Counted from the first letter of the stretch, positions 1,667 through 22,200 are shown. The stretch: 64,000 bases of DNA from Schmidtea polychroa (GCA_044892525.1 CM097885.1:13580001-13644000), one strand, 5' to 3'. Made by a program: numbers and translations. The notes: a model not told the origin generated them from the sequence alone.

Positions 1667-1739
1667 CATCTCAGGTGGGACTCGAACCCACAACCTCCGG
1701 ATTAGAAGTCCGACGCGCTATCCATTGCGCCACTGAGAC
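1667..1739 (-). tRNA. trnR-UCU: tRNA-Arg(UCU), intronless (representative copy of the array)
   Basis: Minus strand GTCTCAGTGGCGCAATGGATAGCGCGTCGGACTTCTAATCCGGAGGTTGTGGGTTCGAGTCCCACCTGAGATG, 73 nt. Acceptor stem GTCTCAG/CTGAGAT, anticodon loop CT-TCT-AA, A box TGGCGCAATGG, B box GGTTCGAGTCC, followed by CATTTTT. Confidence 0.97.
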
Positions 1740-3009
1740 TCTAAAGAAATCCACTCACTTCACTTTATCTACATTGGCATTTAAAAAATTGTCAATTTGA
1801 CTCTTGTCAAGTCAAAACAAATTTCTCATGCTTTTGATATTCTTGATAGATTTCGTATGATTGCATTAGAAATTGCTTTGACGATTTTTCGTTGTTGAAA
1901 ACAAAATTTTGTCAAAGACAATTCTGTAAAAATGCATCTCAGGTGGGACTCGAACCCACAACCTCCGGATTAGAAGTCCGACGCGCTATCCATTGCGCCA
2001 CTGAGACTCTAAAGAAATCCACTCACTTCACTTTATCTACATTGGCATTTAAAAAATTGTCAATTTGACTCTTGTCAAGTCAAAACAAATTTCTCATGCT
2101 TTTGATATTCTTGATAGATTTCGTATGATTGCATTAGAAATTGCTTTGACGATTTTTCGTTGTTGAAAACAAAATTTTGTCAAAGACAATTCTGTAAAAA
2201 TGCATCTCAGGTGGGACTCGAACCCACAACCTCCGGATTAGAAGTCCGACGCGCTATCCATTGCGCCACTGAGACTCTAAAGAAATCCACTCACTTCACT
2301 TTATCTACATTGGCATTTAAAAAATTGTCAATTTGACTCTTGTCAAGTCAAAACAAATTTCTCATGCTTTTGATATTCTTGATAGATTTCGTATGATTGC
2401 ATTAGAAATTGCTTTGACGATTTTTCGTTGTTGAAAACAAAATTTTGTCAAAGACAATTCTGTAAAAATGCATCTCAGGTGGGACTCGAACCCACAACCT
2501 CCGGATTAGAAGTCCGACGCGCTATCCATTGCGCCACTGAGACTCTAAAGAAATCCACTCACTTCACTTTATCTACATTGGCATTTAAAAAATTGTCAAT
2601 TTGACTCTTGTCAAGTCAAAACAAATTTCTCATGCTTTTGATATTCTTGATAGATTTCGTATGATTGCATTAGAAATTGCTTTGACGATTTTTCGTTGTT
2701 GAAAACAAAATTTTGTCAAAGACAATTCTGTAAAAATGCATCTCAGGTGGGACTCGAACCCACAACCTCCGGATTAGAAGTCCGACGCGCTATCCATTGC
2801 GCCACTGAGACTCTAAAGAAATCCACTCACTTCACTTTATCTACATTGGAATTTAAAAAATTGTCAATTTGACTCTTGTCAAGTCAAAACAAATTTCTCA
2901 TGCTTTTGATATTCTTGATAGATTTCGTATGATTGCATTAGAAATTGCTTTGACGATTTTTCGTTGTTGAAAACAAAATTTTGTCAAAGACAATTCTGTA
3001 AAAATGCAT

Positions 3010-4250
3010 TACTTTTCCAATTATTTATGACATGCCAAGCTATGACCAATCGTCGACTGACAGTACTTCTTATACAGTTTGCTTGATAAAATATATATAT
3101 ATATAAATTATAGCATCATGTATCATCCATAATCATCTTAAATATTATCATTATATTATTATTTAATTCATTTAAAAATTATTGATAAATGAATTAAATA
3201 TTAAATTAAATTAAAAATTATTATTATTATTATTATTATTTACAAAAATATTATTATTTAAATTAACATTCATGATTGCAGTTAGCAACCATGAATGCTA
3301 ACAAAGACATCATGTGTTTAATGCGTGATCAGCGCATAAAGACAATGATTAATGACAAAGACAGTGCATGATCAGTGCATGTCTCATAAAGAAACATAAT
3401 GAAATTAAAATTCCTATAGAAAAAAGATTTAAAATTATCTAAACCTAAAGGATTGGCATTTAATTCCTCCCCAGATAAAAATTTATTTAATTTTAAGTAT
3501 TTATTCTTTGATTCCTTAATTTTAGTTAAAGGAATCAAATTTGGAAACTTATTATAGAGCTGTTTTCGCTCTTTTTTTTAGTTAAAATACGAATATAAGT
3601 TTTAAAATCAAATATTTTATTACTTATTTTCGGTTTGGAAATAAAAACTTTAGGATTTACAGAACTTTTATTATTGTTTATTGAAATTTTAAAATTTTCG
3701 AAATTTTGACTATCGATATTAAAATCGTTATTAACATTAATATTGAGAATTTTATCACAAGTCGAATTATTAACATTACAATTATCTATATTTACAATTT
3801 CATTAGCTTTAGAATTTTTATTTAAAGAAAATTTATCAAAATTATTTAAATTATTAGAGAAATTTTCAAAATTTAAAGATAAACATTCTAACCGTTCGAA
3901 CATCTTTGAAAATAAAATCTCCATTGAATCCAAACGTTTCTCGAAATTCTGAAACTGATTGTCTGGCTTGTTTGGAAGGACATTGTTCATCGAATGATTC
4001 TCCATGGAAGTCATATTAATTCCAGCTTTGAATTGATCGAAAAAGTCCAAAATAGCTTGAGTTGATTGCAATTGATATTGGAATAATTTCTGAAATTTCT
4101 TCATACCAATTGCATTATTACACAATACATCTGCAGTCATTAATTGAACTTCAGTGTGCATATCTTGTTGATGCATTGCGTCAGGCGATGGCGTCATCTT
4201 GTTCATTTGATATTCTTGATAGATTTCATATGATTGCTTTAGAAATTGCT
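3010..4250 (-). repeat. Partial third copy of the 6.4-kb cassette (its right-hand 1.24 kb)
   Basis: Near-identical to about 31057-32297 and 37456-38696, with the same 249-aa and 69-aa ORFs. Confidence 0.92.
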
Positions 4251-4284
4251 TCCATTGCGCCACTGAGACTCTAAAGAAATCCAC
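3535..4284 (-). pseudogene. Diverged, frameshifted and truncated ORF1 of a sister subfamily, fused to tRNA nt 1-19 and spacer sequence
   Basis: The 249-aa ORF matches the ORF1 N-terminus (PDAMHQQDMH...NFEKRLD). A frameshift in an A-run continues it as the 69-aa ORF 3329-3538 (IPLTKIKESKNKYLKL). Confidence 0.85.
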
Positions 4285-6930
4285 TCACTTCACTTTATCT
4301 ACATTGGCATTTAAAAAATTGTCAATTTGACTCTTGTCAAGTCAAAACAAATTTCTCATGCTTTTGATATTCTTGATAGATTTCGTATGATTGCATTAGA
4401 AATTGCTTTGACGATTTTTCGTTGTTGAAAACAAAATTTTGTCAAAGACAATTCTGTAAAAATGCATCTCAGGTGGGACTCGAACCCACAACCTCCGGAT
4501 TAGAAGTCCGACGCGCTATCCATTGCGCCACTGAGACTCTAAAGAAATCCACTCACTTCACTTTATCTACATTGGCATTTAAAAAATTGTCAATTTGACT
4601 CTTGTCAAGTCAAAACAAATTTCTCATGCTTTTGATATTCTTGATAGATTTCGTATGATTGCATTAGAAATTGCTTTGACGATTTTTCGTTGTTGAAAAC
4701 AAAATTTTGTCAAAGACAATTCTGTAAAAATGCATCTCAGGTGGGACTCGAACCCACAACCTCCGGATTAGAAGTCCGACGCGCTATCCATTGCGCCACT
4801 GAGACTCTAAAGAAATCCACTCACTTCACTTTATCTACATTGGCATTTAAAAAATTGTCAATTTGACTCTTGTCAAGTCAAAACAAATTTCTCATGCTTT
4901 TGATATTCTTGATAGATTTCGTATGATTGCATTAGAAATTGCTTTGACGATTTTTCGTTGTTGAAAACAAAATTTTGTCAAAGACAATTCTGTAAAAATG
5001 CATCTCAGGTGGGACTCGAACCCACAACCTCCGGATTAGAAGTCCGACGCGCTATCCATTGCGCCACTGAGACTCTAAAGAAATCCACTCACTTCACTTT
5101 ATCTACATTGGCATTTAAAAAATTGTCAATTTGACTCTTGTCAAGTCAAAACAAATTTCTCATGCTTTTGATATTCTTGATAGATTTCGTATGATTGCAT
5201 TAGAAATTGCTTTGACGATTTTTCGTTGTTGAAAACAAAATTTTGTCAAAGACAATTCTGTAAAAATGCATCTCAGGTGGGACTCGAACCCACAACCTCC
5301 GGATTAGAAGTCCGACGCGCTATCCATTGCGCCACTGAGACTCTAAAGAAATCCACTCACTTCACTTTATCTACATTGGCATTTAAAAAATTGTCAATTT
5401 GACTCTTGTCAAGTCAAAACAAATTTCTCATGCTTTTGATATTCTTGATAGATTTCGTATGATTGCATTAGAAATTGCTTTGACGATTTTTCGTTGTTGA
5501 AAACAAAATTTTGTCAAAGACAATTCTGTAAAAATGCATCTCAGGTGGGACTCGAACCCACAACCTCCGGATTAGAAGTCCGACGCGCTATCCATTGCGC
5601 CACTGAGACTCTAAAGAAATCCACTCACTTCACTTTATCTACATTGGCATTTAAAAAATTGTCAATTTGACTCTTGTCAAGTCAAAACAAATTTCTCATG
5701 CTTTTGATATTCTTGATAGATTTCGTATGATTGCATTAGAAATTGCTTTGACGATTTTTCGTTGTTGAAAACAAAATTTTGTCAAAGACAATTCTGTAAA
5801 AATGCATCTCAGGTGGGACTCGAACCCACAACCTCCGGATTAGAAGTCCGACGCGCTATCCATTGCGCCACTGAGACTCTAAAGAAATCCACTCACTTCA
5901 CTTTATCTACATTGGAATTTAAAAAATTGTCAATTTGACTCTTGTCAAGTCAAAACAAATTTCTCATGCTTTTGATATTCTTGATAGATTTCGTATGATT
6001 GCATTAGAAATTGCTTTGACGATTTTTCGTTGTTGAAAACAAAATTTTGTCAAAGACAATTCTGTAAAAATGCATCTCAGGTGGGACTCGAACCCACAAC
6101 CTCCGGATTAGAAGTCCGATGCGCTATCCATTGCGCCACTGAGACTCTAAAGAAATCCACTCACTTCACTTTATCTACATTGGCATTTAAAAAATTGTCA
6201 ATTTGACTCTTGTCAAGTCAAAACAAATTTCTCATGCTTTTGATATTCTTGATAGATTTCGTATGATTGCATTAGAAATTGCTTTGACGATTTTTCGTTG
6301 TTGAAAACAAAATTTTGTCAAAGACAATTCTGTAAAAATGCATCTCAGGTGGGACTCGAACCCACAACCTCCGGATTAGAAGTCCGACGCGCTATCCATT
6401 GCGCCACTGAGACTCTAAAGAAATCCACTCACTTCACTTTATCTACATTGGCATTTAAAAAATTGTCAATTTGACTCTTGTCAAGTCAAAACAAATTTCT
6501 CATGCTTTTGATATTCTTGATAGATTTCGTATGATTGCATTAGAAATTGCTTTGACGATTTTTCGTTGTTGAAAACAAAATTTTGTCAAAGACAATTCTG
6601 TAAAAATGCATCTCAGGTGGGACTCGAACCCACAACCTCCGGATTAGAAGTCCGACGCGCTATCCATTGCGCCACTGAGACTCTAAAGAAATCCACTCAC
6701 TTCACTTTATCTACATTGGCATTTAAAAAATTGTCAATTTGACTCTTGTCAAGTCAAAACAAATTTCTCATGCTTTTGATATTCTTGATAGATTTCGTAT
6801 GATTGCATTAGAAATTGCTTTGACGATTTTTCGTTGTTGAAAACAAAATTTTGTCAAAGACAATTCTGTAAAAATGCATCTCAGGTGGGACTCGAACCCA
6901 CAACCTCCGGATTAGAAGTCCGACGCGCTA
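4251..6930 (-). tRNA. trnR-UCU: tRNA-Arg(UCU) tandem array block B: 9 complete genes plus interrupted ends
   Basis: Complete genes from 4465 every 268 bp to 6609. Fragment nt 1-19 at 4251-4269 and fragment nt 20-73 at 6877-6930. Confidence 0.96.
6911..6930. repeat. 20-bp target-site duplication, left copy (partner at 14418-14437)
   Basis: attagaagtccgacgcgcta (tRNA nt 20-39) flanks both ends of the element. Confidence 0.92.
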
Positions 6931-7279
6931 ATTAAACATTTATTAAATATAACAAATTTGAATATTGTTTTTAACAGATAATCAGCTCTACATGGAGTTG
7001 TCCATAAGCAAATATTCACATATTAACTTCATCTGCTGGAATCTCTGATCACTCTCATCGGATTTCATCATCCGGCATTGCGACTTGTCTTTGGTAGATT
7101 GAAGATCTAAATTCTTAAATTTGCTTTGTCGCAGAATATTTATCTCGAAAAAATGAAAGTTTCTTTAATAATTAGTTTATTTTTTTTAATGAAATTTAAA
7201 TTTGGTTTGTTTTAATAATCAAATTAATAAAAGTTTTAAATTTAATTATTTTCCTATGTTGAAAACCAATTTATTTTAA

Positions 7280-10200
7280 TTATTCAAAGTTTGGAAGCTT
7301 TCCATTACAATGAAAATACCAAATCTTTGCCGAATGTGCAATGTTACTTATTGCACATTCCTTCATCAAACCTTTGATTTTTGTTTGTGGAATTCCCATT
7401 TTTAATAAAAGATCAGAAGTTTTTGGTTCAATTGATCCCAAGGAACCCATGATGCATGTGAACAATTCAACTTTGTAATCAGGTTTAACTGTTTGTATAT
7501 CTGTTTTTAATTTATCATATTTTTCCATATTTAATTTGTCGACTCGCTCAAAATTAATTACAGAATCAATTGGACATTTCATGTCTACTAGTAAAATCGT
7601 TTTTCTCTCGGTATTGGTTATTAAAAGATCAACCCGTTCGTTGGAATTCGGTACAAGAGAACATTTATGATCAGTGACAACCAAGAGTTCAGGATTTTTA
7701 AGTGCATCTTTAATTTTTTCCAAGCAAGCATTATGTCTATTAGTTGCTAATGATTGATTGATTCTACAAGTTTGGAGTACATGTAAAATTGTCTCATCTT
7801 CAGATTTACACCTACGACAAAGGCGGTCTTCGCCAGTTTTATGTGGCTTTGCAAATGTAGAGAGTGTATTTGTTCGAGCTCGATGAATGAAATTCCATTC
7901 AAAGTCTGTCAAGTCACTACGAAAGATTAGTTTGTTGACAAATGGACAAAGTTTGAGAGCAGATACAATTAGATTACTTTGATTACTCTTCTCCCACTTT
8001 TCGAGATACGAATCTTGAAGAGCAGAATGGAGAATCTTTGATAATGCTTTTCTTAATTTTGGTAATAATATGCGAGTGCCAGTTAATGAAGTAGTGAGCC
8101 GAATCGAAGGATTTTGTTTGAAAGTTTCGAACGAAATTTTAATGTTGTGAACTCGATTGAAATATGCAATTGATGCACGCAATCGGTAGAAGCGAGTTTT
8201 ACTACCACTATGATTTAATTTGCTTTCTTTTCCATTAACCCATTCCAAGCTTTGACTGAGAGTTGGTTCTTTGATTCCGAGTCTTGGACTTGTCACAGAC
8301 AAGAGTGAAAAAGTGTTTATCTTTTTTGAATAGTCGCAAGTTGATGTTAGTAAACGGAAGAAGTAAACAATCGACTGTGTGTGATACTCATCAAGAAGGT
8401 CAATACAGCCAGCTCCACCATTTTCAGTGGCATTATAGAAATAACTTATTTCAGAGTGGTTTGGTAAATTTAATATTTTCCTCAAATGGCTCCTCAATTG
8501 GCTAGTACTATTTACATTTATCCTTGAGTTACTACTAGGAGATGTTAATGAACTAGTTTTAATTTCCCTAGTTCTAAATGGGAAAATAAGGCGCGAATGC
8601 AGGAAGATTTTATAAGCTTTGAGCTTTTGCCAACCATAGAGATCAGAGTTAGCAATCTTTTTAGTATCTTCAATGACTTGGCTGACGATTTCATAGGGAC
8701 TTTGATCATTATTATCACCTATTGGCACTCCTAAGTATTGGTAAAATTCATTACCAGCAAGTTTTTTAATTAAATCATTGTTGACAACGATTTCACTGAC
8801 CGTTTCTAGTTTTGGGTATTGTATATATGCACATTTTTCAGGGCGATATTCAAATCCAATATTATTGGCAGTTTTTACAGCTACGCCAATTAGCTTTTGG
8901 AGGTCAGTTGAGCTAGTTGCAATAAGTGCAATGTCATCAGCATAAGCTAACACTTGTACTTGAGAAGAGCCTATCATAAAAGGTGTAATGTTAGATGCGG
9001 TAATAGCTTCAAGAACCGGATTAATAGCTATTGCAAACAGAATCATAGAGATCGGGCAGCCTTGTTTTACACCTTTCTTTATTGGAATATTTGGTGTCTG
9101 CATTTTGTTACAGCGATAAAAAGAGCTCGTATCTGTATAAAGTAATTTCAGGATATTCACAAAGTTTTCACCAACGTTCATATGTCTTAACAATGTCCAC
9201 ATGTATTCGTGTGGAACACTTCCGAAAGCGTCTTTGATGTCAAGCCATGCTATTGCTAAAGGTGAAGATTTACTATATTTTGAATGCTCGACAATCGCAG
9301 AGAGAATTGAGTTGTGTTCAATACATCCTTCGTATTCTGAACCACCCTTTTGGCCAATATGCAGCAGATTATTTTCTTTAATCCATGAACTAAGGCGAGT
9401 TGCAAGAACTGAAGCGAAAACTTTGTAAATCACTGACAGTAATGCGATTGGTCGCCATGAAGATATTTTATGGTATTGGTCATTTTTATCAGGTTTCGGA
9501 ATTAATATTGTTTTAAAAGTTTTCCAACTTGTAGGGATAGATTTCAGTTGAATGACTTTGTTGAAAAGTAACGCTAGAAGCTTACAATCTGGATCAAGTA
9601 ACAGAAGATCTTTATAATATACATTATCAAGTCCGGGCGTAGAATTATCAGCTTCCTGAAGATTGGAAAGAATTTCCATTGGCGTAGTAATTTCTAATTC
9701 AAGTAAGCTTTTCGAGATTTTACTAAAGTTTAAAACGTTGTTCCAACTTCCAGGTAAAGTATCTTGATGAGTGAAAGTGTTTATAATTTCCTGAAATGGT
9801 GGTTCAGCTTTTTCGCTCTGATTACCTAAAATTCTGTTTACAGTCTTTTTCATATTTTTCAGAAATTCAGTAGAATTGTTGAATTTTTTAGGTTTATTGT
9901 GATTTTTCCCAAGATATGGCTCTCGAAATTCTTGATCCTGCAAATTTTCTAGATGAGGAATATTTGCCAGAATAGTAGAGATAATTTCATCAACATTAGA
10001 GTTAGACAATGTAGTTAAAAGCTCATCAATTCTATCTTTGCGTTGCTTCAAAGTTAGTTTCAAAGAATTAGCAATTTTCAATTTTCCACGTCTCTCAATT
10101 TTGACAATGTCATTATTATCAACTATTGGAACTAGAGAGTTGATTATTTCAGAAATTTCAGTCAAGTTAATATTTTCAAGAGATTTATCTTGAGTGTAGT

Positions 10201-11875
10201 TTCTGATAAATGCACAAATTAATATTTTGCTAAATAAACCAGAACCTCTTATATCATGTGGGCAGTGGCCAATTGTCATTGAACGCCCTTTACTTTGTCT
10301 TAGCTCATTAATTTTGAGCACAATGTTATAAGAGAAAGCTTTAGAAAACACATTCAAATCATTGGTCACTGGACTAAGAAAATAATGTTCGTCTGTGTCG
10401 TAATCAATTACCAACAGCAATTCATGGGCCTTGGGAGGAGAAATTATTGCAAAGATTACATTTGCCTTCATCATGTCCTCAATGTTTAAAAAATCATTTA
10501 AGTATTGAGTACAATCATCTGAAATTGCAGCAGACAAAGTTCTGTTTAGGAGAATATAATTATTCGATAATTTTAGGTTCATAAAATATTCATTAATAAT
10601 TTTATCAGTTATTTTACCGTTGATTAAATTAAAGTTGGGAGAAATTTCAATGCACGACTGAGATTTTAATTCACCAAGTGTATCATATACTTTATCATAA
10701 TCCAAGAGTCTTTCAAAGACAAATTTCTCAAAAAACACAATAAAGGAACTTGCGAAGTATTGATTGTCATTAGAGTGAAAGGAAGGATGCGAGATTCGAT
10801 GATCAGCTATGAATTTAATTTTTCGATTAAGACAAAATTGATTGAGATAATCGGTCATCTTTTCACCAATTTCAATCAATCTCTCATCAATATTTCTATA
10901 ATTAAAATCAAAAATGTAGCTACGGTTAAGTTTGCTGGAGTATATGAAAAGACACCAATCTTTAAATTTTGGAATGACACCAAGAATGTGATCGATTCCT
11001 TTAAATTGTTTAAAGGTGACATTGTCGGCTATAAAAGAGTCATTTTGCGCAATTAAATTGGATGTTAAATTGGCAGATAAAACCAAGATTTTAGAATTCT
11101 CTTTATAATATTTACCAATTAGTGATGACACACATGGCGCTTGGTTGTTGAGAATTTTAGTAATGTTTAAATTATTATTTGTAGTTTTAGATTTAGCGAT
11201 AGCCTTCTTGAAATTGATTGTTGCCATATTTAAATTGTTTTTAGCACCTCCAATTAAATTTGGTGCACCATTAACCAAGTGTTTCTGATATCGATGAACA
11301 TTTCGTCTTATTTCTTCAATGAATCCATCAGGAAAGATGTTCCAATCTTTACTGATTATCACTGCATAAGCGCAAGTGAATGGACCACAGTCAAAGTTGT
11401 TATTTTGATATTGAAGATTTGTATGCGGATGATATGACACTGCTATCTTGAGGTTGAAAAATCTATTTAGTGCAATATTCATTTTAAGAGCCATTTGTTT
11501 GTTGATTAGATTATTTCGGTTATTAAAAATTGGATCAATAAAGTAAGATGAATTTGATTTCTTACAGTATACAAAAAGAATCCAATGGGAATTGTTTATA
11601 TTAAGTGGACAAAAAATCATTTCAGCATTGGTAATTGACTGTGGAATTGCAACAATTTCTTCTTGAATATTCGAGCATAGAATATTAACGATGAAGCATT
11701 TGATGTATCCATGCATTGGATTGTCGATATGGTTTTCAAGATACCAATCAATATCATTATCAGAGAACCACATTTCAGGATCAAAATCGTCAATTGGTAA
11801 ATAGTAATTATCTATTGTGCTCTCTGCATCAGTCTCATTAGAGGGAACGGCAGACGCTTGAGCTGATGCAGGCAC
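7280..11875 (-). CDS. ORF2: Ulp1/C48-like cysteine protease, reverse transcriptase, CCHC knuckle and restriction-like endonuclease
   Basis: Protease motifs SHWIL..FIDP..QNNNFDCGPF. RT motifs WRPIAL, LDIKDAFGSV, GVKQGCPIS, YADD, YLGV. Zinc knuckle CRRCx8HxxxxC, RHN, and RLE motif RVDLLI...LVDMKCP. No ATG at the start of the frame (GTG). Confidence 0.96.
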   Translation of the reverse strand: MPASAQASAVPSNETDAESTIDNYYLPIDDFDPEMWFSDNDIDWYLENHIDNPMHGYIKCFIVNILCSNIQEEIVAIPQSITNAEMIFCPLNINNSHWILFVYCKKSNSSYFIDPIFNNRNNLINKQMALKMNIALNRFFNLKIAVSYHPHTNLQYQNNNFDCGPFTCAYAVIISKDWNIFPDGFIEEIRRNVHRYQKHLVNGAPNLIGGAKNNLNMATINFKKAIAKSKTTNNNLNITKILNNQAPCVSSLIGKYYKENSKILVLSANLTSNLIAQNDSFIADNVTFKQFKGIDHILGVIPKFKDWCLFIYSSKLNRSYIFDFNYRNIDERLIEIGEKMTDYLNQFCLNRKIKFIADHRISHPSFHSNDNQYFASSFIVFFEKFVFERLLDYDKVYDTLGELKSQSCIEISPNFNLINGKITDKIINEYFMNLKLSNNYILLNRTLSAAISDDCTQYLNDFLNIEDMMKANVIFAIISPPKAHELLLVIDYDTDEHYFLSPVTNDLNVFSKAFSYNIVLKINELRQSKGRSMTIGHCPHDIRGSGLFSKILICAFIRNYTQDKSLENINLTEISEIINSLVPIVDNNDIVKIERRGKLKIANSLKLTLKQRKDRIDELLTTLSNSNVDEIISTILANIPHLENLQDQEFREPYLGKNHNKPKKFNNSTEFLKNMKKTVNRILGNQSEKAEPPFQEIINTFTHQDTLPGSWNNVLNFSKISKSLLELEITTPMEILSNLQEADNSTPGLDNVYYKDLLLLDPDCKLLALLFNKVIQLKSIPTSWKTFKTILIPKPDKNDQYHKISSWRPIALLSVIYKVFASVLATRLSSWIKENNLLHIGQKGGSEYEGCIEHNSILSAIVEHSKYSKSSPLAIAWLDIKDAFGSVPHEYMWTLLRHMNVGENFVNILKLLYTDTSSFYRCNKMQTPNIPIKKGVKQGCPISMILFAIAINPVLEAITASNITPFMIGSSQVQVLAYADDIALIATSSTDLQKLIGVAVKTANNIGFEYRPEKCAYIQYPKLETVSEIVVNNDLIKKLAGNEFYQYLGVPIGDNNDQSPYEIVSQVIEDTKKIANSDLYGWQKLKAYKIFLHSRLIFPFRTREIKTSSLTSPSSNSRINVNSTSQLRSHLRKILNLPNHSEISYFYNATENGGAGCIDLLDEYHTQSIVYFFRLLTSTCDYSKKINTFSLLSVTSPRLGIKEPTLSQSLEWVNGKESKLNHSGSKTRFYRLRASIAYFNRVHNIKISFETFKQNPSIRLTTSLTGTRILLPKLRKALSKILHSALQDSYLEKWEKSNQSNLIVSALKLCPFVNKLIFRSDLTDFEWNFIHRARTNTLSTFAKPHKTGEDRLCRRCKSEDETILHVLQTCRINQSLATNRHNACLEKIKDALKNPELLVVTDHKCSLVPNSNERVDLLITNTERKTILLVDMKCPIDSVINFERVDKLNMEKYDKLKTDIQTVKPDYKVELFTCIMGSLGSIEPKTSDLLLKMGIPQTKIKGLMKECAISNIAHSAKIWYFHCNGKLPNFE

Positions 11876-11884
11876 ACATCTTCA
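11816..11884 (-). promoter_or_regulatory. Candidate UGA readthrough signal: stop codon, 5-nt spacer, stem-loop
   Basis: Minus strand TGA AGATG TGTGC-CTGCATCAG-CTCA...TGAG-A-CTGATGCAG-AGA-GCACA. The stem is unchanged in all three copies. Confidence 0.65.
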
Positions 11885-14419
11885 TTTGGTCTTCGATGAT
11901 TGTTTTTTTAGTGTCGTAGCTCGCGATTTTGTAGCAGATTTCTTTGTGAGAGGTTCTTCAATAGTCTCTGTAGGGATTGGATTGACTTGACTAGAATTTG
12001 ATTGATCAGTGGAAATGGCGTCAAATAAACAGTTTTCACAAATGTTAACATTCATTCCTTCTCTGGCCAAAATGAATTTTTCAAGGATGTTATTACATTT
12101 CATACAGTTGATTTCTTCTATGACAACGATAGGGTCCAAAACATCATTGTTGGTAGTTGGATTGTCAATATCGCAATTGGTTTCGGCTGTTTCTTTTACA
12201 TTGATTTGGTTAACAATTAATTTTAATTTAGTTATTATTAGAGAAATTTGCTGGCACATCTCTGGAGTGCAATATTTATTACTTGTTTCAAACAGACGGA
12301 ATTTCTGGTTTTTATCCATCAATTTCTTTGTATCTCTCAACAAAAAATAAATAAATCGCTTCGCTTTAACGCCATATGTGTCATCTATTAATTTCTCATT
12401 ATTAATTGTTTCCATTAATTTAGTAAGGATATTATTGTTTTGAAATTTATTGGGAAAGGTTTCGTCAACAAGATCAAGAAAACTATTAACACATGCTATA
12501 GTTTCTGGAGATATTACGTTATGGATCTTTTTAATTTCCCCAGAAATTTTCCATTGTTTTAATTTCAAGAGTTTTTCTTGACAATTTGTATAATAAAAAG
12601 ACGAGTTTGGAATCCTTTGAATAATTTCAGAAGCCCAACTTTCAAAATTTTCAAGCGAGAGAAGAGAAAGATCTTCAAGCGAACAGAGTGAATTTAATAA
12701 ACAACAATTTCGAATATAGTTCACAACATAATCAGAATAAGTTTGATTTTGAGAAAATTTTAAGGATCCAACCAAACCCAAGTAATTTAGATAAAATACT
12801 ATCTCAACAATTTTAAAGTGACAATCTGTTTTAGTCAAAATTGATTTTAATTCAACATCATCTTTTGCCATGTTTATTAGATCAAATAACCCAAGATTAA
12901 ACATTATGTCAGGAAATGAATTGGGTTCTTTGTGTTTAATATCAGATTGAAAGAATTTACCCCCTTCAAAAAAGATATCTTCAGGAAACACATTATCGAT
13001 TTTTAAAGATTCAATCAACTTAATAATTGAAGATGATTTTGAGTCAGGATTCTCAACAAACATAATCTCTTTAAGAGAAGGATAAGATGAGTAGAGAGAT
13101 TTCATCTGGGTACGAGAGAGTTCGGAAAATGTTGATGATGTGAAATCGTTATTTATCTTGGATGTTATATTTGGGTTTGTCAAATCTAACAATATAAACT
13201 CACCCTTTTGATATTTAATTTTTGATTTTACCAGATAATTTGGGAGTTTATCTTGTTTAATCAAAGAAGAAATGATTTTATTAATTTTATTTTCTCTATG
13301 ATTACAATCTGTAATAGAAACTGTTTCAGAAAGCTCAGGCGAAAGATTAAATAAAAATCTTTTAATTGAAGTTGGTGCTGCTATATAATTAGAAAAATTA
13401 GGAAAAGTCTTTACAATATTATGTTCAGACAAAAAAATTTTCTTTTTATAAGAGACAGGTTTAACGGTTGAGTTTTCATTTAAAAAACTACTTATATGAA
13501 ACTCAACACAGAAATTAAAATTCCTATAAAGAAAACATTTAAAATTATCTAAACCTAAAGGATTGGTATTAAATTCCTCCCCAGATAAAACTTTATTTAA
13601 TTTTAAATATTTATTCTTTGATTCCTTAATTTTAGTTAAAGGAATCAAAGTTGGAAACTTATTATAGAGCTGTTTTCGCTCTTTTTTTGTTAAAATACGA
13701 ATAAAAGTCTTAAAATCAAAACTTTTATTACTTATTATCGGTTTGGAAACAAACACTTTAGGATTGTCAAAACGTGTATTATTATTTATTGAAATTTTAA
13801 AATTATCGAAATTTGCACTATCCTTATTTAAATCGTTATTCACATTAATTTTTAGATTTTTATCAGAAGTTGAATTATTAACATTACAAGAATTTTTATT
13901 TAAAGGAAATTTATCAAACTCTATATTAAAATCCTTATTGACAATTGATGAATTATTAAAATTACAATTATCTAAATTTGAAATTTCATTAATTTTATTA
14001 TCTTTAAAATGGAAAAAATCTTTATTTAAAGAAAATTTATTGAAATTATTTAAATTATTAAAGAAACCCTCAAAATTCAAAGATAAACACTCTAACCTTT
14101 CAAGCTTCTTTGAGAATGAAATCTCCATTAAATCCAAACGTTTCTCGAAATTCTGAAACTGATTTTCCGGCTTGTTTGGAAGGACATTGTTCATTGAATT
14201 CTCCATGGAAGGCATATGAAATCCAGCTTTGAATTGACTGAAGAAATCCAAAAGAGCTTGATTTGATTGCAATTGATATTGGAATAATTTCTGAAGTTTC
14301 TTCATATCAATTGCATAATTACATAATCCTTCTGCAGTCGTTGATTGAACTCCAGTGTGCATATCTTGTTGATGCATTGCGTCAGGCGATTGCATCATCT
14401 TGTTTTCTCCGTTAGTCAT
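11882..14419 (-). CDS. ORF1, 845 aa, unknown function (Asn/Lys-rich; CxxC...CxxC motif near the C-terminus)
   Basis: Long ORF conserved in copies 1, 3 and 4. Contains CMKC-x16-CENC and a basic C-terminal tail. The first ATG straddles the tRNA/element junction. Confidence 0.88.
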   Translation of the reverse strand: MTNGENKMMQSPDAMHQQDMHTGVQSTTAEGLCNYAIDMKKLQKLFQYQLQSNQALLDFFSQFKAGFHMPSMENSMNNVLPNKPENQFQNFEKRLDLMEISFSKKLERLECLSLNFEGFFNNLNNFNKFSLNKDFFHFKDNKINEISNLDNCNFNNSSIVNKDFNIEFDKFPLNKNSCNVNNSTSDKNLKINVNNDLNKDSANFDNFKISINNNTRFDNPKVFVSKPIISNKSFDFKTFIRILTKKERKQLYNKFPTLIPLTKIKESKNKYLKLNKVLSGEEFNTNPLGLDNFKCFLYRNFNFCVEFHISSFLNENSTVKPVSYKKKIFLSEHNIVKTFPNFSNYIAAPTSIKRFLFNLSPELSETVSITDCNHRENKINKIISSLIKQDKLPNYLVKSKIKYQKGEFILLDLTNPNITSKINNDFTSSTFSELSRTQMKSLYSSYPSLKEIMFVENPDSKSSSIIKLIESLKIDNVFPEDIFFEGGKFFQSDIKHKEPNSFPDIMFNLGLFDLINMAKDDVELKSILTKTDCHFKIVEIVFYLNYLGLVGSLKFSQNQTYSDYVVNYIRNCCLLNSLCSLEDLSLLSLENFESWASEIIQRIPNSSFYYTNCQEKLLKLKQWKISGEIKKIHNVISPETIACVNSFLDLVDETFPNKFQNNNILTKLMETINNEKLIDDTYGVKAKRFIYFLLRDTKKLMDKNQKFRLFETSNKYCTPEMCQQISLIITKLKLIVNQINVKETAETNCDIDNPTTNNDVLDPIVVIEEINCMKCNNILEKFILAREGMNVNICENCLFDAISTDQSNSSQVNPIPTETIEEPLTKKSATKSRATTLKKQSSKTK

Positions 14420-17400
14420 TAGAAGTCCGACGCGCTATCCATTGCGCCACTGAGACTCTAAAGAAATCCACTCACTTCACTTTATCTACATTGGCATTTA
14501 AAAAATTGTCAATTTGACTCTTGTCAAGTCAAAACAAATTTCTCATGCTTTTGATATTCTTGATAGATTTCGTATGATTGCATTAGAAATTGCTTTGACG
14601 ATTTTTCGTTGTTGAAAACAAAATTTTGTCAAAGACAATTCTGTAAAAATGCATCTCAGGTGGGACTCGAACCCACAACCTCCGGATTAGAAGTCCGACG
14701 CGCTATCCATTGCGCCACTGAGACTCTAAAGAAATCCACTCACTTCACTTTATCTACATTGGCATTTAAAAAATTGTCAATTTGACTCTTGTCAAGTCAA
14801 AACAAATTTCTCATGCTTTTGATATTCTTGATAGATTTCGTATGATTGCATTAGAAATTGCTTTGACGATTTTTCGTTGTTGAAAACAAAATTTTGTCAA
14901 AGACAATTCTGTAAAAATGCATCTCAGGTGGGACTCGAACCCACAACCTCCGGATTAGAAGTCCGACGCGCTATCCATTGCGCCACTGAGACTCTAAAGA
15001 AATCCACTCACTTCACTTTATCTACATTGGCATTTAAAAAATTGTCAATTTGACTCTTGTCAAGTCAAAACAAATTTCTCATGCTTTTGATATTCTTGAT
15101 AGATTTCGTATGATTGCATTAGAAATTGCTTTGACGATTTTTCGTTGTTGAAAACAAAATTTTGTCAAAGACAATTCTGTAAAAATGCATCTCAGGTGGG
15201 ACTCGAACCCACAACCTCCGGATTAGAAGTCCGACGCGCTATCCATTGCGCCACTGAGACTCTAAAGAAATCCACTCACTTCACTTTATCTACATTGGCA
15301 TTTAAAAAATTGTCAATTTGACTCTTGTCAAGTCAAAACAAATTTCTCATGCTTTTGATATTCTTGATAGATTTCGTATGATTGCATTAGAAATTGCTTT
15401 GACGATTTTTCGTTGTTGAAAACAAAATTTTGTCAAAGACAATTCTGTAAAAATGCATCTCAGGTGGGACTCGAACCCACAACCTCCGGATTAGAAGTCC
15501 GACGCGCTATCCATTGCGCCACTGAGACTCTAAAGAAATCCACTCACTTCACTTTATCTACATTGGCATTTAAAAAATTGTCAATTTGACTCTTGTCAAG
15601 TCAAAACAAATTTCTCATGCTTTTGATATTCTTGATAGATTTCGTATGATTGCATTAGAAATTGCTTTGACGATTTTTCGTTGTTGAAAACAAAATTTTG
15701 TCAAAGACAATTCTGTAAAAATGCATCTCAGGTGGGACTCGAACCCACAACCTCCGGATTAGAAGTCCGACGCGCTATCCATTGCGCCACTGAGACTCTA
15801 AAGAAATCCACTCACTTCACTTTATCTACATTGGCATTTAAAAAATTGTCAATTTGACTCTTGTCAAGTCAAAACAAATTTCTCATGCTTTTGATATTCT
15901 TGATAGATTTCGTATGATTGCATTAGAAATTGCTTTGACGATTTTTCGTTGTTGAAAACAAAATTTTGTCAAAGACAATTCTGTAAAAATGCATCTCAGG
16001 TGGGACTCGAACCCACAACCTCCGGATTAGAAGTCCGACGCGCTATCCATTGCGCCACTGAGACTCTAAAGAAATCCACTCACTTCACTTTATCTACATT
16101 GGCATTTAAAAAATTGTCAATTTGACTCTTGTCAAGTCAAAACAAATTTCTCATGCTTTTGATATTCTTGATAGATTTCGTATGATTGCATTAGAAATTG
16201 CTTTGACGATTTTTCGTTGTTGAAAACAAAATTTTGTCAAAGACAATTCTGTAAAAATGCATCTCAGGTGGGACTCGAACCCACAACCTCCGGATTAGAA
16301 GTCCGACGCGCTATCCATTGCGCCACTGAGACTCTAAAGAAATCCACTCACTTCACTTTATCTACATTGGCATTTAAAAAATTGTCAATTTGACTCTTGT
16401 CAAGTCAAAACAAATTTCTCATGCTTTTGATATTCTTGATAGATTTCGTATGATTGCATTAGAAATTGCTTTGACGATTTTTCGTTGTTGAAAACAAAAT
16501 TTTGTCAAAGACAATTCTGTAAAAATGCATCTCAGGTGGGACTCGAACCCACAACCTCCGGATTAGAAGTCCGACGCGCTATCCATTGCGCCACTGAGAC
16601 TCTAAAGAAATCCACTCACTTCACTTTATCTACATTGGAATTTAAAAAATTGTCAATTTGACTCTTGTCAAGTCAAAACAAATTTCTCATGCTTTTGATA
16701 TTCTTGATAGATTTCGTATGATTGCATTAGAAATTGCTTTGACGATTTTTCGTTGTAGAAAACAAAATTTTGTCAAAGACAATTCTGTAAAAATGCATCT
16801 CAGGTGGGACTCGAACCCACAACCTCCGGATTAGAAGTCCGACGCGCTATCCATTGCGCCACTGAGACTCTAAAGAAATCCACTCACTTCACTTTATCTA
16901 CATTGGCATTTAAAAAATTGTCAATTTGACTCTTGTCAAGTCAAAACAAATTTCTCATGCTTTTGATATTCTTGATAGATTTCGTATGATTGCATTAGAA
17001 ATTGCTTTGACGATTTTTCGTTGTTGAAAACAAAATTTTGTCAAAGACAATTCTGTAAAAATGCATCTCAGGTGGGACTCGAACCCACAACCTCCGGATT
17101 AGAAGTCCGACGCGCTATCCATTGCGCCACTGAGACTCTAAAGAAATCCACTCACTTCACTTTATCTACATTGGCATTTAAAAAATTGTCAATTTGACTC
17201 TTGTCAAGTCAAAACAAATTTCTCATGCTTTTGATATTCTTGATAGATTTCGTATGATTGCATTAGAAATTGCTTTGACGATTTTTCGTTGTTGAAAACA
17301 AAATTTTGTCAAAGACAATTCTGTAAAAATGCATCTCAGGTGGGACTCGAACCCACAACCTCCGGATTAGAAGTCCGACGCGCTATCCATTGCGCCACTG

Positions 17401-19261
17401 AGACTCTAAAGAAATCCACTCACTTCACTTTATCTACATTGGCATTTAAAAAATTGTCAATTTGACTCTTGTCAAGTCAAAACAAATTTCTCATGCTTTT
17501 GATATTCTTGATAGATTTCGTATGATTGCATTAGAAATTGCTTTGACGATTTTTCGTTGTTGAAAACAAAATTTTGTCAAAGACAATTCTGTAAAAATGC
17601 ATCTCAGGTGGGACTCGAACCCACAACCTCCGGATTAGAAGTCCGACGCGCTATCCATTGCGCCACTGAGACTCTAAAGAAATCCACTCACTTCACTTTA
17701 TCTACATTGGCATTTAAAAAATTGTCAATTTGACTCTTGTCAAGTCAAAACAAATTTCTCATGCTTTTGATATTCTTGATAGATTTCGTATGATTGCATT
17801 AGAAATTGCTTTGACGATTTTTCGTTGTTGAAAACAAAATTTTGTCAAAGACAATTCTGTAAAAATGCATCTCAGGTGGGACTCGAACCCACAACCTCCG
17901 GATTAGAAGTCCGACGCGCTATCCATTGCGCCACTGAGACTCTAAAGAAATCCACTCACTTCACTTTATCTACATTGGCATTTAAAAAATTGTCAATTTG
18001 ACTCTTGTCAAGTCAAAACAAATTTCTCATGCTTTTGATATTCTTGATAGATTTCGTATGATTGCATTAGAAATTGCTTTGACGATTTTTCGTTGTTGAA
18101 AACAAAATTTTGTCAAAGACAATTCTGTAAAAATGCATCTCAGGTGGGACTCGAACCCACAACCTCCGGATTAGAAGTCCGACGCGCTATCCATTGCGCC
18201 ACTGAGACTCTAAAGAAATCCACTCACTTCACTTTATCTACATTGGCATTTAAAAAATTGTCAATTTGACTCTTGTCAAGTCAAAACAAATTTCTCATGC
18301 TTTTGATATTCTTGATAGATTTCGTATGATTGCATTAGAAATTGCTTTGACGATTTTTCGTTGTTGAAAACAAAATTTTGTCAAAGACAATTCTGTAAAA
18401 ATGCATCTCAGGTGGGACTCGAACCCACAACCTCCGGATTAGAAGTCCGACGCGCTATCCATTGCGCCACTGAGACTCTAAAGAAATCCACTCACTTCAC
18501 TTTATCTACATTGGCATTTAAAAAATTGTCAATTTGACTCTTGTCAAGTCAAAACAAATTTCTCATGCTTTTGATATTCTTGATAGATTTCGTATGATTG
18601 CATTAGAAATTGCTTTGACGATTTTTCGTTGTTGAAAACAAAATTTTGTCAAAGACAATTCTGTAAAAATGCATCTCAGGTGGGACTCGAACCCACAACC
18701 TCCGGATTAGAAGTCCGACGCGCTATCCATTGCGCCACTGAGACTCTAAAGAAATCCACTCACTTCACTTTATCTACATTGGCATTTAAAAAATTGTCAA
18801 TTTGACTCTTGTCAAGTCAAAACAAATTTCTCATGCTTTTGATATTCTTGATAGATTTCGTATGATTGCATTAGAAATTGCTTTGACGATTTTTCGTTGT
18901 TGAAAACAAAATTTTGTCAAAGACAATTCTGTAAAAATGCATCTCAGGTGGGACTCGAACCCACAACCTCCGGATTAGAAGTCCGACGCGCTATCCATTG
19001 CGCCACTGAGACTCTAAAGAAATCCACTCACTTCACTTTATCTACATTGGCATTTAAAAAATTGTCAATTTGACTCTTGTCAAGTCAAAACAAATTTCTC
19101 ATGCTTTTGATATTCTTGATAGATTTCGTATGATTGCATTAGAAATTGCTTTGACGATTTTTCGTTGTTGAAAACAAAATTTTGTCAAAGACAATTCTGT
19201 AAAAATGCATCTCAGGTGGGACTCGAACCCACAACCTCCGGATTAGAAGTCCGACGCGCTA
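14418..19261 (-). tRNA. trnR-UCU: tRNA-Arg(UCU) tandem array block C: 17 complete genes plus interrupted ends
   Basis: Complete genes from 14652 every 268 bp. Fragment nt 1-39 at 14418-14456 and fragment nt 20-73 at 19208-19261. Confidence 0.96.
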
Positions 19262-22200
19262 ATAAAACATTTATTAAATATAACAAATTTGAATATTGAT
19301 TTTAACAGATAATCAGCTCTACATGGAGTTGTCCATAAGCAAATATTCACATATTTGCTTCATCTGCTGGAATCTCTGATCACTCTCTTCGGATTTCATC
19401 ATCCGGCATTGCGACTTGTCTTTGGTAGATTGAAGATCTAAATTCTTAAATTTGCTTTGTCGCAGAATATTTATCTCGAAAAAATGAAAGTCTCTTTAAT
19501 AATTAGTTTATATTTTTTAATGAAATTTAAATTTAGTTTGTTTTAATAATCAAATTAATAAAAGTTTTAAATTTAATTATATTCCTATGTTGAAAACCAA
19601 TTTATTTTAATTATTCAAAGTTTGGAAGCTTTCCATTACAATGAAAATACCAAATCTTTGCCGAATGTGCAATGTTACTTATTGCACATTCCTTCATCAA
19701 ACCTTTGATTTTTGTTTGTGGAATTCCCATTTTTAATAAAAGATCAGAAGTTTTTGGTTCAATTGATCCCAAGGAACCCATGATGCATGTAAACAATTCA
19801 ACCTTGTAATCAGGTTTAACTGTTTGTATATCTGATTTTAATTTATCATATTTTTCTAAATTTAATTTGTCGACTCGCTCAAAATTAATTACAGAATCAA
19901 TTGGACATTTCATGTCTACTAGCAGAATCGTCTTTTTCTCGGTATTTGTTATTAAAAGATCAACCCGTTCGTTGGAATTTGGTACAAGAGAACATTTGTG
20001 ATCAGTGACAACCAAGAGTTCAGGATTTTTAAGCGCATCTTTAATTTTTTCTAAGCAAGCATTATGTCGATTAGTTGCTAATGATTGATTGATTCTACAA
20101 GTTTGGAGTACATGTAAAATTGTCTCATCTTCAGATTTACATCTACGACAAAGGCGGTCTTCGCCAGTTTTATGTGGCTTAGCAAATGTAGAGAGTGTAT
20201 TTGTTCGAGCTCGATGAATGAAATTCCATTCAAAGTCTGTCAAGTCACTACGGAAAATTAGTTTGTTGACAAATGGACAAAGTTTGAGAGCAGACACAAT
20301 TAGATTACTTTGATTACTTTTCTCCCACTTTTCGAGATACGAATCTTGAAGAACAGAATGGAGAATCTTTGATAATGCTTTTCTTAATTTTGGTAATAAT
20401 ATGCGAGTGCCAGTTAATGAAGTAGTGAGTCGAATCGAAGGATTTTGTTTGAAAGTTTCGAACGAAATTTTAATGTTGTGAACTCGATTGAAATATGCAA
20501 TTGATGCACGCAATCGGTAGAAGCGAGTTTTACTACCACTATGATTTAATTTGCTTTCTTTTCCATTAACCCATTCCAAGCTTTGACTGAGAGTTGGTTC
20601 TTTGATTCCGAGTCTTGGACTTGTCACAGACAAGAGTGAAAAAGTGTTTATCTTTTTTGAGTAGTCGCAAGTTGATGTTAGTAAACGGAAAAAGTAAACA
20701 ATCGACTGTGTGTGATACTCATCAAGAAGGTCAATACAGCCAGCTCCACCATTTTCAGTGGCATTATAGAAATAACTTATTTCAGAGTGGTTTGGTAAAT
20801 TTAATATTTTCCTCAAATGGCTCCTCAATTGGCTAGTACTATTTACATTTATCCTTGAGTTACTACTAGGAGCTGTTAATGAACTAGTTTTAATTTCCCT
20901 AGTTCTAAATGGGAAAATAAGGCGCGAATGCAGGAAGATTTTATAAGCTTTGAGCTTTTGCCAACCATAAAGATCAGAGTTTGCAATCTTTTTAGTATCT
21001 TCAATGACTTGGCTGACGATTTCATAGGGACTTTGATCATTATTATCACCTATTGGCACTCCTAAGTATTGGTAAAATTCATTACCAGCAAGTTTTTTAA
21101 TTAAATCATTGTTGACAACGATTTCACTGACCGTTTCTAGTTTTGGGTATTGTATATATGCACATTTTTCAGGGCGATATTCAAATCCAATATTATTGGC
21201 AGTTTTTACAGCTACATCAATTAGCTTTTGGAGGTCAGTTGAGCTAGTTGCAATAAGTGCAATGTCATCAGCATAAGCTAACACTTGTACTTGAGAAGAG
21301 CCTATCATAAAAGGTGTAATGTTAGATGCGGTAATAGCTTCAAGAACCGGATTAATAGCTATTGCAAACAGAATCATAGAGATCGGGCAGCCTTGTTTTA
21401 CACCTTTCTTAATTGGAATATTCGGTGTCTGCATTTTGTTGCAGCGATAAAAAGAGCTCGTATCTGTATAAAGTAATTTCAGGATATTCACAAAGTTTTC
21501 ACCAACGTTCATATGTCTTAACAATGTCCACATGTATTCGTGTGGAACACTTCCGAAAGCGTCTTTGATGTCAAGCCAGGCTATTGCTAAAGGTGAAGAT
21601 TTACTATATTTTGAATGCTCGACAATCGCAGAGAGAATTGAGTTGTGTTCAATACATCCTTCGTATTCTGAGCCACCCTTTTGGCCAATATGCAGTAGAT
21701 TATTTTCTTTAATCCATAAACTAAGACGAGTTGCAAGAACTGAAGCGAAAACTTTGTAAATCACTGACAGTAATGCGATTGGTCGCCATGAAGATACTTT
21801 ATGGTATTGGTCATTTTTATCAGGTTTCGGAATTAATATTGTTTTAAAAGTTTTCCAACTTGTAGGGATAGATTTCAGTTGAATGATTTTGTTGAAAAGT
21901 AACGTTAGAAGCTTACAATCTGGATCGAGTAACAGAAGATCTTTATAATATACATTATCAAGTCCGGGCGTAGAATTATCAGCTTCCTGAAGATTGGAAA
22001 GAATTTCCATTGGCGTAGTAATTTCTAATTCAAGTAAGCTTTTCGAGATTTTACTAAAGTTTAAAACGTTGTTCCAACTTCCAGGTAAAGTATCTTGATG
22101 AGTGAAAGTGTTTATAATTTCCTGAAATGGTGGTTCAGCTTTTTCGCTCTGATTACCTAAAATTCTGTTTACAGTCTTTTTCATATTTTTCAGAAATTCA

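Follow-up and report, generated by a model that had tools for sequence, protein, structure and literature searches.

A NeSL-like retrotransposon family of Schmidtea polychroa found at one D-loop position in the genes of at least seven tRNA species

In or next to a 64,000-nucleotide (nt) stretch of the Schmidtea polychroa genome (GCA_044892525.1 CM097885.1:13580001-13644000, contig C1; hereafter the window), four copies of one retrotransposon without long terminal repeats (non-LTR) sit at nt 20 of tRNA-Arg(TCT) genes. Across the genome (781 Mb in size, ∼30% G+C), the element targets one structural position, where the D loop ends directly 5′ of A21, and does so in no fewer than seven tRNA species, not in tRNA-Arg alone. 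We read it as a NeSL-like element with a restriction-like endonuclease (RLE), inserting through target-primed reverse transcription (TPRT) at this one structural tRNA-gene position across many tRNA species; we give this reading a probability of about 0.85.

Searching the window with the element by BLAST located all four copies on the - strand, each in the tRNA sense orientation. The array, the copies and the parts of copy c1 that define its ends are as follows:

1414..41644, - strand: tandem tRNA-Arg(TCT) array of 268-bp units with 45 intact genes (ARAGORN), broken by element copies and older debris
6931..14417, - strand: copy c1, 7,487 nt
19262..24786, - strand: copy c2, 5′-truncated, beginning at element nt 1963, 98.5% identity to c1, upstream tRNA to nt 63-64
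41645..48928, - strand: copy c3, beginning at element nt 203, 97.9% identity to c1, at the array edge with a non-tRNA 5′ flank
1..1414, - strand: 5′ part of copy cA (element nt 13-1426), upstream tRNA to about nt 57
14418..14456, - strand: upstream target remnant of c1, tRNA-Arg(TCT) nt 1-39
6877..6930, - strand: downstream target remnant of c1, tRNA nt 20 to the 3′ end
6931..7279, - strand: 3′ untranslated region (UTR) of c1, without poly(A), with the terminal 16-mer TTAATAAATGTTT[AT]AT

The 3′ junctions of c1, c2 and c3 are alike, and are as the initial annotation of this stretch described them: the element end ...AATAAATGTTT(A/T)AT is joined to TAGCGCG at tRNA nt 20, always in the sense orientation. 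The 3′ end of cA is located at C1:13573941, 6 kb beyond the window. Judged from the structure of RNA polymerase III (Pol III) promoters, the tRNA gene hit by c1 is presumably dead, its A box being parted from its B box. The segment 6877-6937 (-), which consists of the last 7 nt of the element and the cut tRNA, still scores as tRNA in Rfam (35.7 bits, compared to a gathering score of 29), probably through the surviving anticodon and T arms. At E ≤ 1, the Rfam scan of window 6600-14800 reported flanking and cut tRNAs only; no family was found inside the element, and no ribozyme.

A DNA search of the genome, for which the 3′-terminal 500 nt of the element were the query, returned 325 candidates, 40 of which were scored, every one with at least 99% identity. 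At all 30 loci retrieved with this 3′ segment, the element end is followed by TAGC or AAGC belonging to a tRNA or a tRNA-like sequence; the targets are Asn(GTT) in 16 cases, Met(CAT) in eight, initiator-like Met(CAT) (iMet) in four, Arg(TCT) in one and a degenerate tRNA-like sequence in one. We also took a census of genome-wide exact matches to the 16-nt element tail. It yielded 124 matches, 95 of them adjoining tRNA sequence, and the reversed control pattern gave 21 matches; a chance origin of the tail-tRNA junctions is excluded. The census is broken down below:

D-loop site, total: 91 of 124 matches
D-loop site, Met: 41
D-loop site, Asn: 34
D-loop site, iMet-like: 6
D-loop site, Arg(TCT): 4, all in the array of the window
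D-loop site, Ile(AAT): 3
D-loop site, His(GTG): 2
D-loop site, Tyr(GTA): 1
Other tRNA contexts: 4
AT-rich non-tRNA DNA: 29 (chance level)

Across the 91 D-loop cases, the junction never shifts by a nucleotide. Window junctions, retrieved loci and census agree on insertion at a single nucleotide in the tRNA sense orientation. As aligned on the intact genes, the shared target is A14-R15-Y16-(N)-G18-G19-(N)-(T) before the insertion point and A21-G22 after it, at the end of the A box and the D loop. In the intact iMet gene GGA is directly followed by AGCG, without the T, yet all six iMet junctions read ...AAT-T-AGCG; the junction T thus comes from the element, and the site lies directly 5′ of A21.

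Occupancy is low in the three large tRNA arrays, where the insertions compare with the intact genes as follows:

Arg(TCT) array: 4 insertions, 147 intact genes
Asn array: 34 insertions, 489 intact genes
Met array: 41 insertions, 711 intact genes

For the host, this amounts to the disruption of 3-7% of the genes in these arrays by one family. Three of the four census matches in other tRNA contexts belong to sibling families; the fourth is a full-length copy (L047) at an internally deleted tRNA-like site. L047 (C4:34.72 Mb) and L048 (C3:90.90 Mb) are both near-full-length copies located at solitary degenerate tRNA-like sequences outside arrays, which indicates that arrays are unnecessary for targeting. 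At one of these sites TAGCG is joined to GGTTCAAATCC, and at the other a TTTGA-type repeat replaces the anticodon arm; the B-box-like GGTTCAAATCC is retained at both.

The element has two open reading frames (ORFs), with the following features in c1:

7280..11875, - strand: ORF2, 1,531 amino acids (aa)
11270..11797, - strand: Ulp1/SENP-like cysteine protease (ORF2 aa 27-202); Pfam Peptidase_C48 (PF02902) E 2e-9, 1euv E 4e-6
10121..11140, - strand: two putative degenerate Ulp1-like repeats (aa 246-585); blastp to domain 1 E 3e-4 and 2e-3, repeat pattern in the model
8396..9826, - strand: reverse transcriptase (RT), fingers/palm/thumb (aa 684-1160); RVT_1 E 9e-30, R2 protein 9nl2 E 1e-52
7343..7849, - strand: CCHC zinc knuckle and RLE (aa 1343-1511), aligning to R2 proteins
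11882..14419, - strand: ORF1, 845 aa, with an N/K/S-rich N-terminus and a conserved core at ∼aa 260-760
11882..11884, - strand: in-frame TGA between ORF1 and ORF2, a single stop; ...AAA TGA AGA TGT GTG CCT GCA TCA...
11817..11875, - strand: predicted 17-bp hairpin, starting 6 nt after the TGA; RNAalifold -22.8 kcal/mol

All three ORF2s of the window are open at 1,531 aa, in line with the initial annotation. Its assignment of the element to the RLE type is likewise borne out: in a phmmer search against the PDB, ORF2 residues 684-1160 and 1343-1511 align to the R2 proteins 9nl2, 9nl3 and 9dou, with E values of 1e-52 to 3e-44 (1e-52 for 9nl2 over the whole sequence). Residues C1353, C1356, H1365, C1370, H1381, D1416, D1431 and K1433 are invariant in ORF2 and 22 database relatives, and the RLE motifs RH[DN], D and D-x-K are kept in this 23-sequence alignment. 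The Pfam scan of ORF2 found no endonuclease/exonuclease/phosphatase family (apurinic/apyrimidinic endonuclease (APE)-type domain). RT followed by CCHC and PD-(D/E)xK without APE is the layout of the RLE-bearing non-LTR retrotransposons, with their R2, NeSL, R4, CRE and Hero groups.

In the N-terminal part of ORF2, the unit at aa 27-202 matches 1xt9 in fold, with a Z score of 17.6 and a root-mean-square deviation of 2.7 Å over 164 residues (NEDP1, Ulp1 and SENP structures), and its catalytic residues H97, D114, Q157 and C163 are invariant. In the AlphaFold model of aa 1-700, which was built from a 13-sequence alignment and has a mean predicted local distance difference test (pLDDT) value of 72.5, one secondary-structure pattern occurs three times. 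Units 2 and 3 lack the catalytic Cys and either the His or the Asp, and the fold search of aa 1-700 picks up the first domain alone; based on the repeat pattern and the weak sequence similarity, we read units 2 and 3 as probable dead protease duplicates. The ORF2 relatives returned by the database search are no more than 60% identical, and R2-annotated proteins are among the matches. From metagenomes 80 loci were kept, with a best identity of 34%; none of the eight scanned has a tRNA gene nearby, which is uninformative on target evolution.

For ORF1, Pfam gave only a chance-level match and no known family; no homologue of 464-1479 aa and no ESM Atlas lead were found, and the AlphaFold model, built from a two-sequence alignment, has a pLDDT of 41. 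However, long blocks of ORF1 are conserved in a sibling family, whose own ORF1 is 38% identical to it over aa 219-780, indicating that ORF1 is a real gene. One CxxC...CxxC near the C-terminus was considered as a DNA-binding finger, but it was ruled out as a conserved feature, since the sibling family does not have it.

ORF1 and ORF2 share one reading frame in this family and in four further sibling families of the same genome, whose ORF2s are ∼54% identical. The TGA is kept in all four and in 15 of 15 copies of the studied family, and the junction reads K-*-R/K-C-V-P-A-S. Between the TGA and the GTG, the two codons vary only synonymously or conservatively (AGA/AGG/AAA and TGT/TGC). Thirteen of the 17 hairpin pairs are invariant in the five families, third codon positions included, and the 22-nt loop varies. 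Read from the sequence, the UGA and the hairpin may form a programmed readthrough signal that gives an ORF1-ORF2 fusion. A serious rival to this, although we hold it as the less favored route, is termination at the UGA and reinitiation at the conserved GUG two codons on, with the hairpin pausing ribosomes; this would be stop-start coupling as in other long interspersed nuclear elements (LINEs). The GTG is invariant in the five families, and 11 more distant protein-database relatives are all called exactly from the aligned M/V-P-A-S; in SART1, translational coupling is aided by downstream structure. Reinitiation has no need for a common ORF1/ORF2 frame in five families, however, and the codons from the UGA to the GTG change as if they were translated. 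An AUG overlapping the stop (AAAUGA) was also considered as the ORF2 start; it was ruled out because that frame closes after 15 codons. In the literature searched, no in-frame stop with a hairpin is described in NeSL-like elements; supplements and Repbase notes may mention one.

How the element finds its site can be viewed in two ways. The target may be read mainly as DNA sequence, or it may be found mainly via the Pol III machinery, i.e. TFIIIC/TFIIIB bound at the A and B boxes, with the D-loop position set by the reach of a tethered endonuclease. The seven targets share little besides the A-box consensus and A21-G22, the B-box-like sequence persists at both degenerate sites, and neither Pfam nor the AlphaFold model and fold search turned up a zinc finger or Myb domain N-terminal of the RT; the two extra protease-like domains could even serve as protein-binding modules, although this is speculation. 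All these points suit tethering. Nevertheless, we consider it unlikely as the main mechanism. Ty3 and the Dictyostelium elements TRE and DGLT-A use tRNA genes as landmarks by binding Pol III factors, and integrate beside the genes with no fixed internal nucleotide; for Ty3 and TRE the distances outside the gene are variable. Different from these tethered elements, the junction of the studied family is nucleotide-exact in every D-loop case. Furthermore, three of the target genes have the 8-mer TAGCGCGT in common and account for 79 of the 91 insertions, so there may be a sequence preference inside the broad range.

Compared to the 3′ ends, the 5′ ends of the window copies are all unlike: the upstream tRNA ends at nt 39 for c1, at about nt 57 for cA and at nt 63-64 for c2, whose junction has a 5-nt microhomology; c3 adjoins non-tRNA DNA. 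At c1, tRNA nt 1-39 are found upstream and nt 20 onward downstream. The 20-bp target-site duplication of the initial annotation (tRNA nt 20-39) therefore stands for this copy; it becomes 17 bp if the common AAT is the element's. This AAT, the final 3 nt of the upstream remnant of c1, is the same as the sequence before GACTAACG in all full-length copies examined, and every examined 5′ flank at a GACTAACG start ends in it, which suggests that the element RNA begins with at least AAUGAC... and that joining occurs via microhomology. Different from most other full-length copies, c1 has no host-spacer leader.

Most copies are full length, and the opening 13 nt of the element (GACTAACGRAGAA) are present at 90 places in the genome, 82 of them in recognizable contexts. 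In the Asn arrays, 33 of 33 such copies begin at one and the same point of the spacer, which lies 74 bp upstream of the tRNA, and ∼95 bp of the target are deleted; in the Met arrays, 35 copies begin at a single point of the Met spacer, 33 bp upstream, and the deletion is ∼53 bp. Copies in other arrays carry pieces of these spacers. In four iMet-array copies, the 48 nt between the iMet spacer and the element equal Asn-array spacer, letter for letter; the same 48 nt are ordinary spacer in every Asn unit examined, and uninterrupted Asn units continue past them. Shorter leader pieces (15-21 nt) are present in another iMet copy, one Ile copy, four Met-array copies and the copy at C1:270.7 Mb, and both His copies have 11 nt of Met spacer and also the GAAG variant that is characteristic of copies in the Met array. 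We considered the 19-48 nt before GACTAACG as a longer 5′ UTR of the element, and ruled this out because the same sequence is ordinary Asn-unit spacer. The Asn and Met spacers on copies in foreign arrays thus point to 5′ transductions, with transcripts that start in the host spacer upstream of the element, and indicate that copies on other chromosomes were seeded by RNAs made in the Asn and Met arrays. In total 19 distinct 5′ junction types were counted, including 5′ truncations and microhomologies, which corresponds to at least 19 insertion events.

In a maximum-likelihood tree made for 39 copies from their last 2 kb, with six rows left out (five duplicates of included genomic copies and one short), the targets are mixed, and the Arg label requires four changes. 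In this tree c3 is identical to one iMet copy and c2 is sister to another iMet copy (Shimodaira-Hasegawa-like approximate likelihood ratio test (SH-aLRT) 99), whereas cA groups with Ile copies (SH-aLRT 99) and c1 with Asn copies (SH-aLRT 94). Taken together, the differing 5′ junctions, the foreign leaders and the mixed tree indicate that the four Arg copies are independent recent arrivals, which agrees with the earlier argument that they are not segmental duplicates of one insertion. Identity among copies is 98-100%, three sets of identical 2-kb tails span different arrays, and several such tails are identical between chromosomes. Among the 15 copies examined in full, both ORFs are open in nine and ORF2 in 13. 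From copy identity, open ORFs and leader transduction, the family was almost certainly active recently, as first proposed from the window copies.

These same observations make it very improbable that the family has spread at the DNA level only, by segmental duplication, unequal crossing-over or gene conversion between arrays, after retrotransposition had ended. Part of the record does look like DNA-level multiplication: the Asn arrays and the Met arrays each have a uniform 5′ junction, the gaps of the Asn copies equal 179+254n bp, and copy pairs in the Met array recur exactly 191,789 bp apart. However, exchange would not put the element at the homologous nucleotide of unrelated tRNA genes, and it accounts poorly for 19 junction types with truncations and microhomologies, for one array's spacer leader in arrays on other chromosomes, for tails identical between chromosomes and for ORFs that are mostly open. 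At C2:87.77-88.15 Mb in the Met array, blocks of element copies switch orientation, with head-to-head 3′ ends 1,194 bp apart; this pattern repeats exactly 191,789 bp away, which indicates a large segmental duplication or inversion inside the array.

The proposal of the initial annotation that the family is specific for arrayed tRNA-Arg(UCU) genes fits all four copies in or next to the window, but it is practically untenable, because 87 of the 91 D-loop junctions lie outside tRNA-Arg(TCT), just four of about 151 Arg(TCT) genes are occupied, and every Arg copy is nearest to a copy from another array.

In the mechanism that we propose, the RLE would nick the antisense strand at the D-loop site, and the RT would prime on the fixed 3′ end of the RNA (...UUUAAU(U), without poly(A)). 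In the home array, the spacer-derived leader would let the cDNA anneal to upstream target DNA, giving one uniform 5′ junction and a target deletion of ∼50-95 bp; this would parallel the way in which R2 uses its rRNA leader for 5′ joining. In foreign arrays, 2-5 nt of microhomology would serve to join the 5′ end, and the outcome would be either a duplication of 17-44 bp or a deletion. ORF2 would be made as an ORF1-ORF2 fusion by readthrough of the conserved in-frame UGA, aided by the downstream hairpin, and the putatively active Ulp1-like protease, located directly behind the junction, may process the fusion protein. Large arrays (147 to 711 intact genes) would absorb the loss of interrupted genes, and unequal crossing-over would multiply resident copies further.

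Several points weigh against this reading of the element. Diverged or 3′-damaged copies escape a census of exact tail matches, and the 500-nt search scored 40 of its 325 candidates. The view that the family may still be active rests on copy identity and open ORFs. The uniform home junctions in the Asn (33) and Met (35) arrays could equally be produced by unequal crossing-over, and the 191,789-bp recurrence means that copy counts exceed event counts. None of the 17 hairpin pairs has compensatory changes, and the same nucleotides encode conserved residues (PAS, TDA), so covariation speaks neither for nor against the hairpin structure. Lastly, no target-reading DNA-binding domain was found by Pfam or by the structure model and fold search of the N-terminal part of ORF2.

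A bolder version of the same reading, which we put forward tentatively, is a 'pan-tRNA' element. It would recognize the A-box/D-loop (G18-G19 to A21), which nearly all tRNAs share, with any tRNA gene a potential site, and would hop freely between arrays; transcription would start in the spacer, and the leader would serve as a 5′ homology guide in the home array. Hairpin-stimulated UGA readthrough would set the ORF1:ORF2 ratio, like that of retroviral gag-pol, and would be common to a guild of siblings that partition the sites.

Related elements do form a guild living in tRNA arrays. One sibling family (L042/L043; C1:227.03 Mb and C315) resides in a tRNA-Tyr(GTA) array with a 253-bp period. It shares 54-57% identity in ORF2 and 38% in ORF1, has the same ORF1-TGA-ORF2 layout, a ∼60-nt 5′ UTR and the same 3′-terminal 16-mer, and is inserted at tRNA nt 4/5, between CCGG and TGATAGC, a LIN25-like position. 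The same Tyr array also contains one D-loop-site copy of the studied family (L041). In a third family (L046; C1:39.67 Mb), seen as a 110-aa ORF2 piece with 63% identity, the same 16-mer ends against AATGCGTCTGACTTCGAA of a tRNA-Arg(TCG)-like gene. Since the terminal 16-mer is common to two sibling families with other tRNA sites, it is more likely an RT signal than a match to the target. A protein search of the genome with a distant relative gave 3,542 first-look candidates; 31 of the 31 scored have no internal stop, with open frames of 1,536-1,545 aa, and they cluster at loci including C1:86.6 Mb, C1:192.8-193.0 Mb and C2:125.8 Mb. The genome thus has many more apparently intact NeSL-like families.

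Other element-derived sequences were noticed in and near the window. At 3010-4269 (-), the Arg array contains a 1.19-kb insertion of another kind. It consists, in order, of tRNA nt 1-23, 46 nt of array spacer (unit nt 130-175), an element-like part with ∼90% identity to element nt 14-401 and 516-907, and ∼390 nt of unknown sequence, and its end is at tRNA nt 71; it may be from an older lineage once 'at home' in the Arg array, with Arg spacer as leader. Two more 1,726-bp gaps, equal in size to this one, are located farther up the array (C1:13546884-13548610 and 13562814-13564540). Between array blocks, 25918-38715 holds two tandem 6,399-bp units built of decayed pieces of related elements (ORF1 5′ parts with 45-87% aa identity, and one ORF2 N-terminal piece with 60%). 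Outside the array, at 58532-59458 (-), element nt 6636-7293, i.e. the RLE end and part of the 3′ UTR, is fused via a GCGAC microhomology to element nt 1-309, with ∼90-95% identity to the element; this chimera resembles the product of a template jump in which the 3′ UTR of a second RNA was entered from the 5′ end of the first. In the 5′ flank of c3 (48929-49030, -), imperfect repeats of the ATGACCTTGA kind follow one another; they are similar to what the element reads at the junction (ATGACCTTCCATGGAG).

Site-specific RLE retrotransposons, R2 foremost, are under development for targeted DNA insertion, as covered by reviews, which makes natural elements with other targets of practical interest. 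The family amounts to a clean experiment of nature: one nucleotide in seven tRNA genes is occupied by dozens of copies, nearly identical and for the most part intact, which define the minimal common target, an A-box/D-loop that is conserved across eukaryotes. The borrowed spacer leaders document who copied from whom, and are DNA-level evidence, outside ribosomal DNA (rDNA), for co-transcription with host sequence and for homology-guided 5′ joining. The conserved UGA and hairpin suggest a form of translational control that is seldom discussed for LINEs.

Among known systems, R2 provides the best solved-structure matches for the RT, CCHC and RLE; like R2, the element has no poly(A), and has precise 3′ and variable 5′ junctions. 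According to a 2026 review, as far as its text at hand goes, ∼28 nt of upstream rRNA are kept on R2 RNA, and the cDNA end anneals to upstream target DNA (PMC13580325); upstream host sequence that guides 5′ joining would be a further likeness of the studied element. Different from R2, it resides in tRNA genes and not in 28S, and has a protease and a long ORF1. Pfam found no N-terminal Myb or zinc finger and Rfam no 5′ ribozyme; in all these respects it departs from the R2 clade. The Dada DNA transposons of fish also use tRNA and other small-RNA genes as a safe haven by inserting inside them, but the part of PMC8869645 consulted describes them as DNA transposons with a DDE transposase, not as retroelements.

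For the NeSL side, our comparison is with the consulted portion of Kojima & Jurka 2015 (PMC4640811). NeSL-1 in nematode spliced-leader genes, the tRNA-Pro-specific NeSL-1_TV and Utopia in U2 small nuclear RNA genes all have a central RT, a C-terminal RLE and multicopy small-RNA gene targets, like the studied element. Its N-terminal Ulp1-like protease is also found in NeSL and Utopia-1_TSP. Utopia elements generally have one protein with N-terminal zinc fingers; different from them, the studied element has two in-frame ORFs split by a UGA and three tandem Ulp1-like domains, and Pfam found no zinc finger before the RT. In domain layout, as opposed to an RT tree, the element thus appears to match the NeSL type.

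The closest known relatives in habit are the target-specific NeSL-related LIN families of planaria, three further ones of which target 28S rDNA. As described in that portion of PMC4640811, LIN15_SM inserts in the D arm of tRNA-Arg CCG and CCT, and LIN25_SM at nt ∼5 of tRNA-Glu (TTC). Like the studied family, both are NeSL-related non-LTR elements, sequence-specific inside tRNA genes, in the sense orientation and without poly(A), and LIN15_SM shares the D arm with it. The AAWT01 record names and the _SM suffix in S6 Fig may point to a host that is identical or closely related. However, the tail of LIN15_SM is aatgttataattaatatatttttaaa (...tttttaaa joined to GCGTC), whereas that of the studied element is ...ttaataaatgttt[a/t]at joined to TAGCG; LIN25_SM has another tail, and its site near nt 5 of one tRNA differs from a D-loop site in at least seven tRNA species. 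We therefore ruled out that the studied family is LIN15_SM or LIN25_SM, which are set apart by tail and site according to the S6 Fig text. In the supplements of PMC4640811, as far as consulted, the tail of the studied family and tRNA-Asn, -Met and -Ile targets are absent. The literature searched contains no description of the family or of a LINE targeting tRNA-Asn, -Met or -Ile; Repbase and Dfam entries lie outside that search, and the family may already have a LIN#_SM entry in Repbase. Likewise, target breadth, inter-array spacer leaders, the UGA-hairpin junction and the triple Ulp1-like module were not found in the literature searched. The initial annotation mentioned planarian tRNA-targeting families related to NeSL, and the LIN families for tRNA-Arg and tRNA-Glu genes bear this out; the novelty that it claimed was overstated. 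As far as this source shows, planarian LINEs of the NeSL-like type that target tRNA genes were already published in 2015, so that the kind itself is known, but the range of tRNA targets of the present family is unusually broad.

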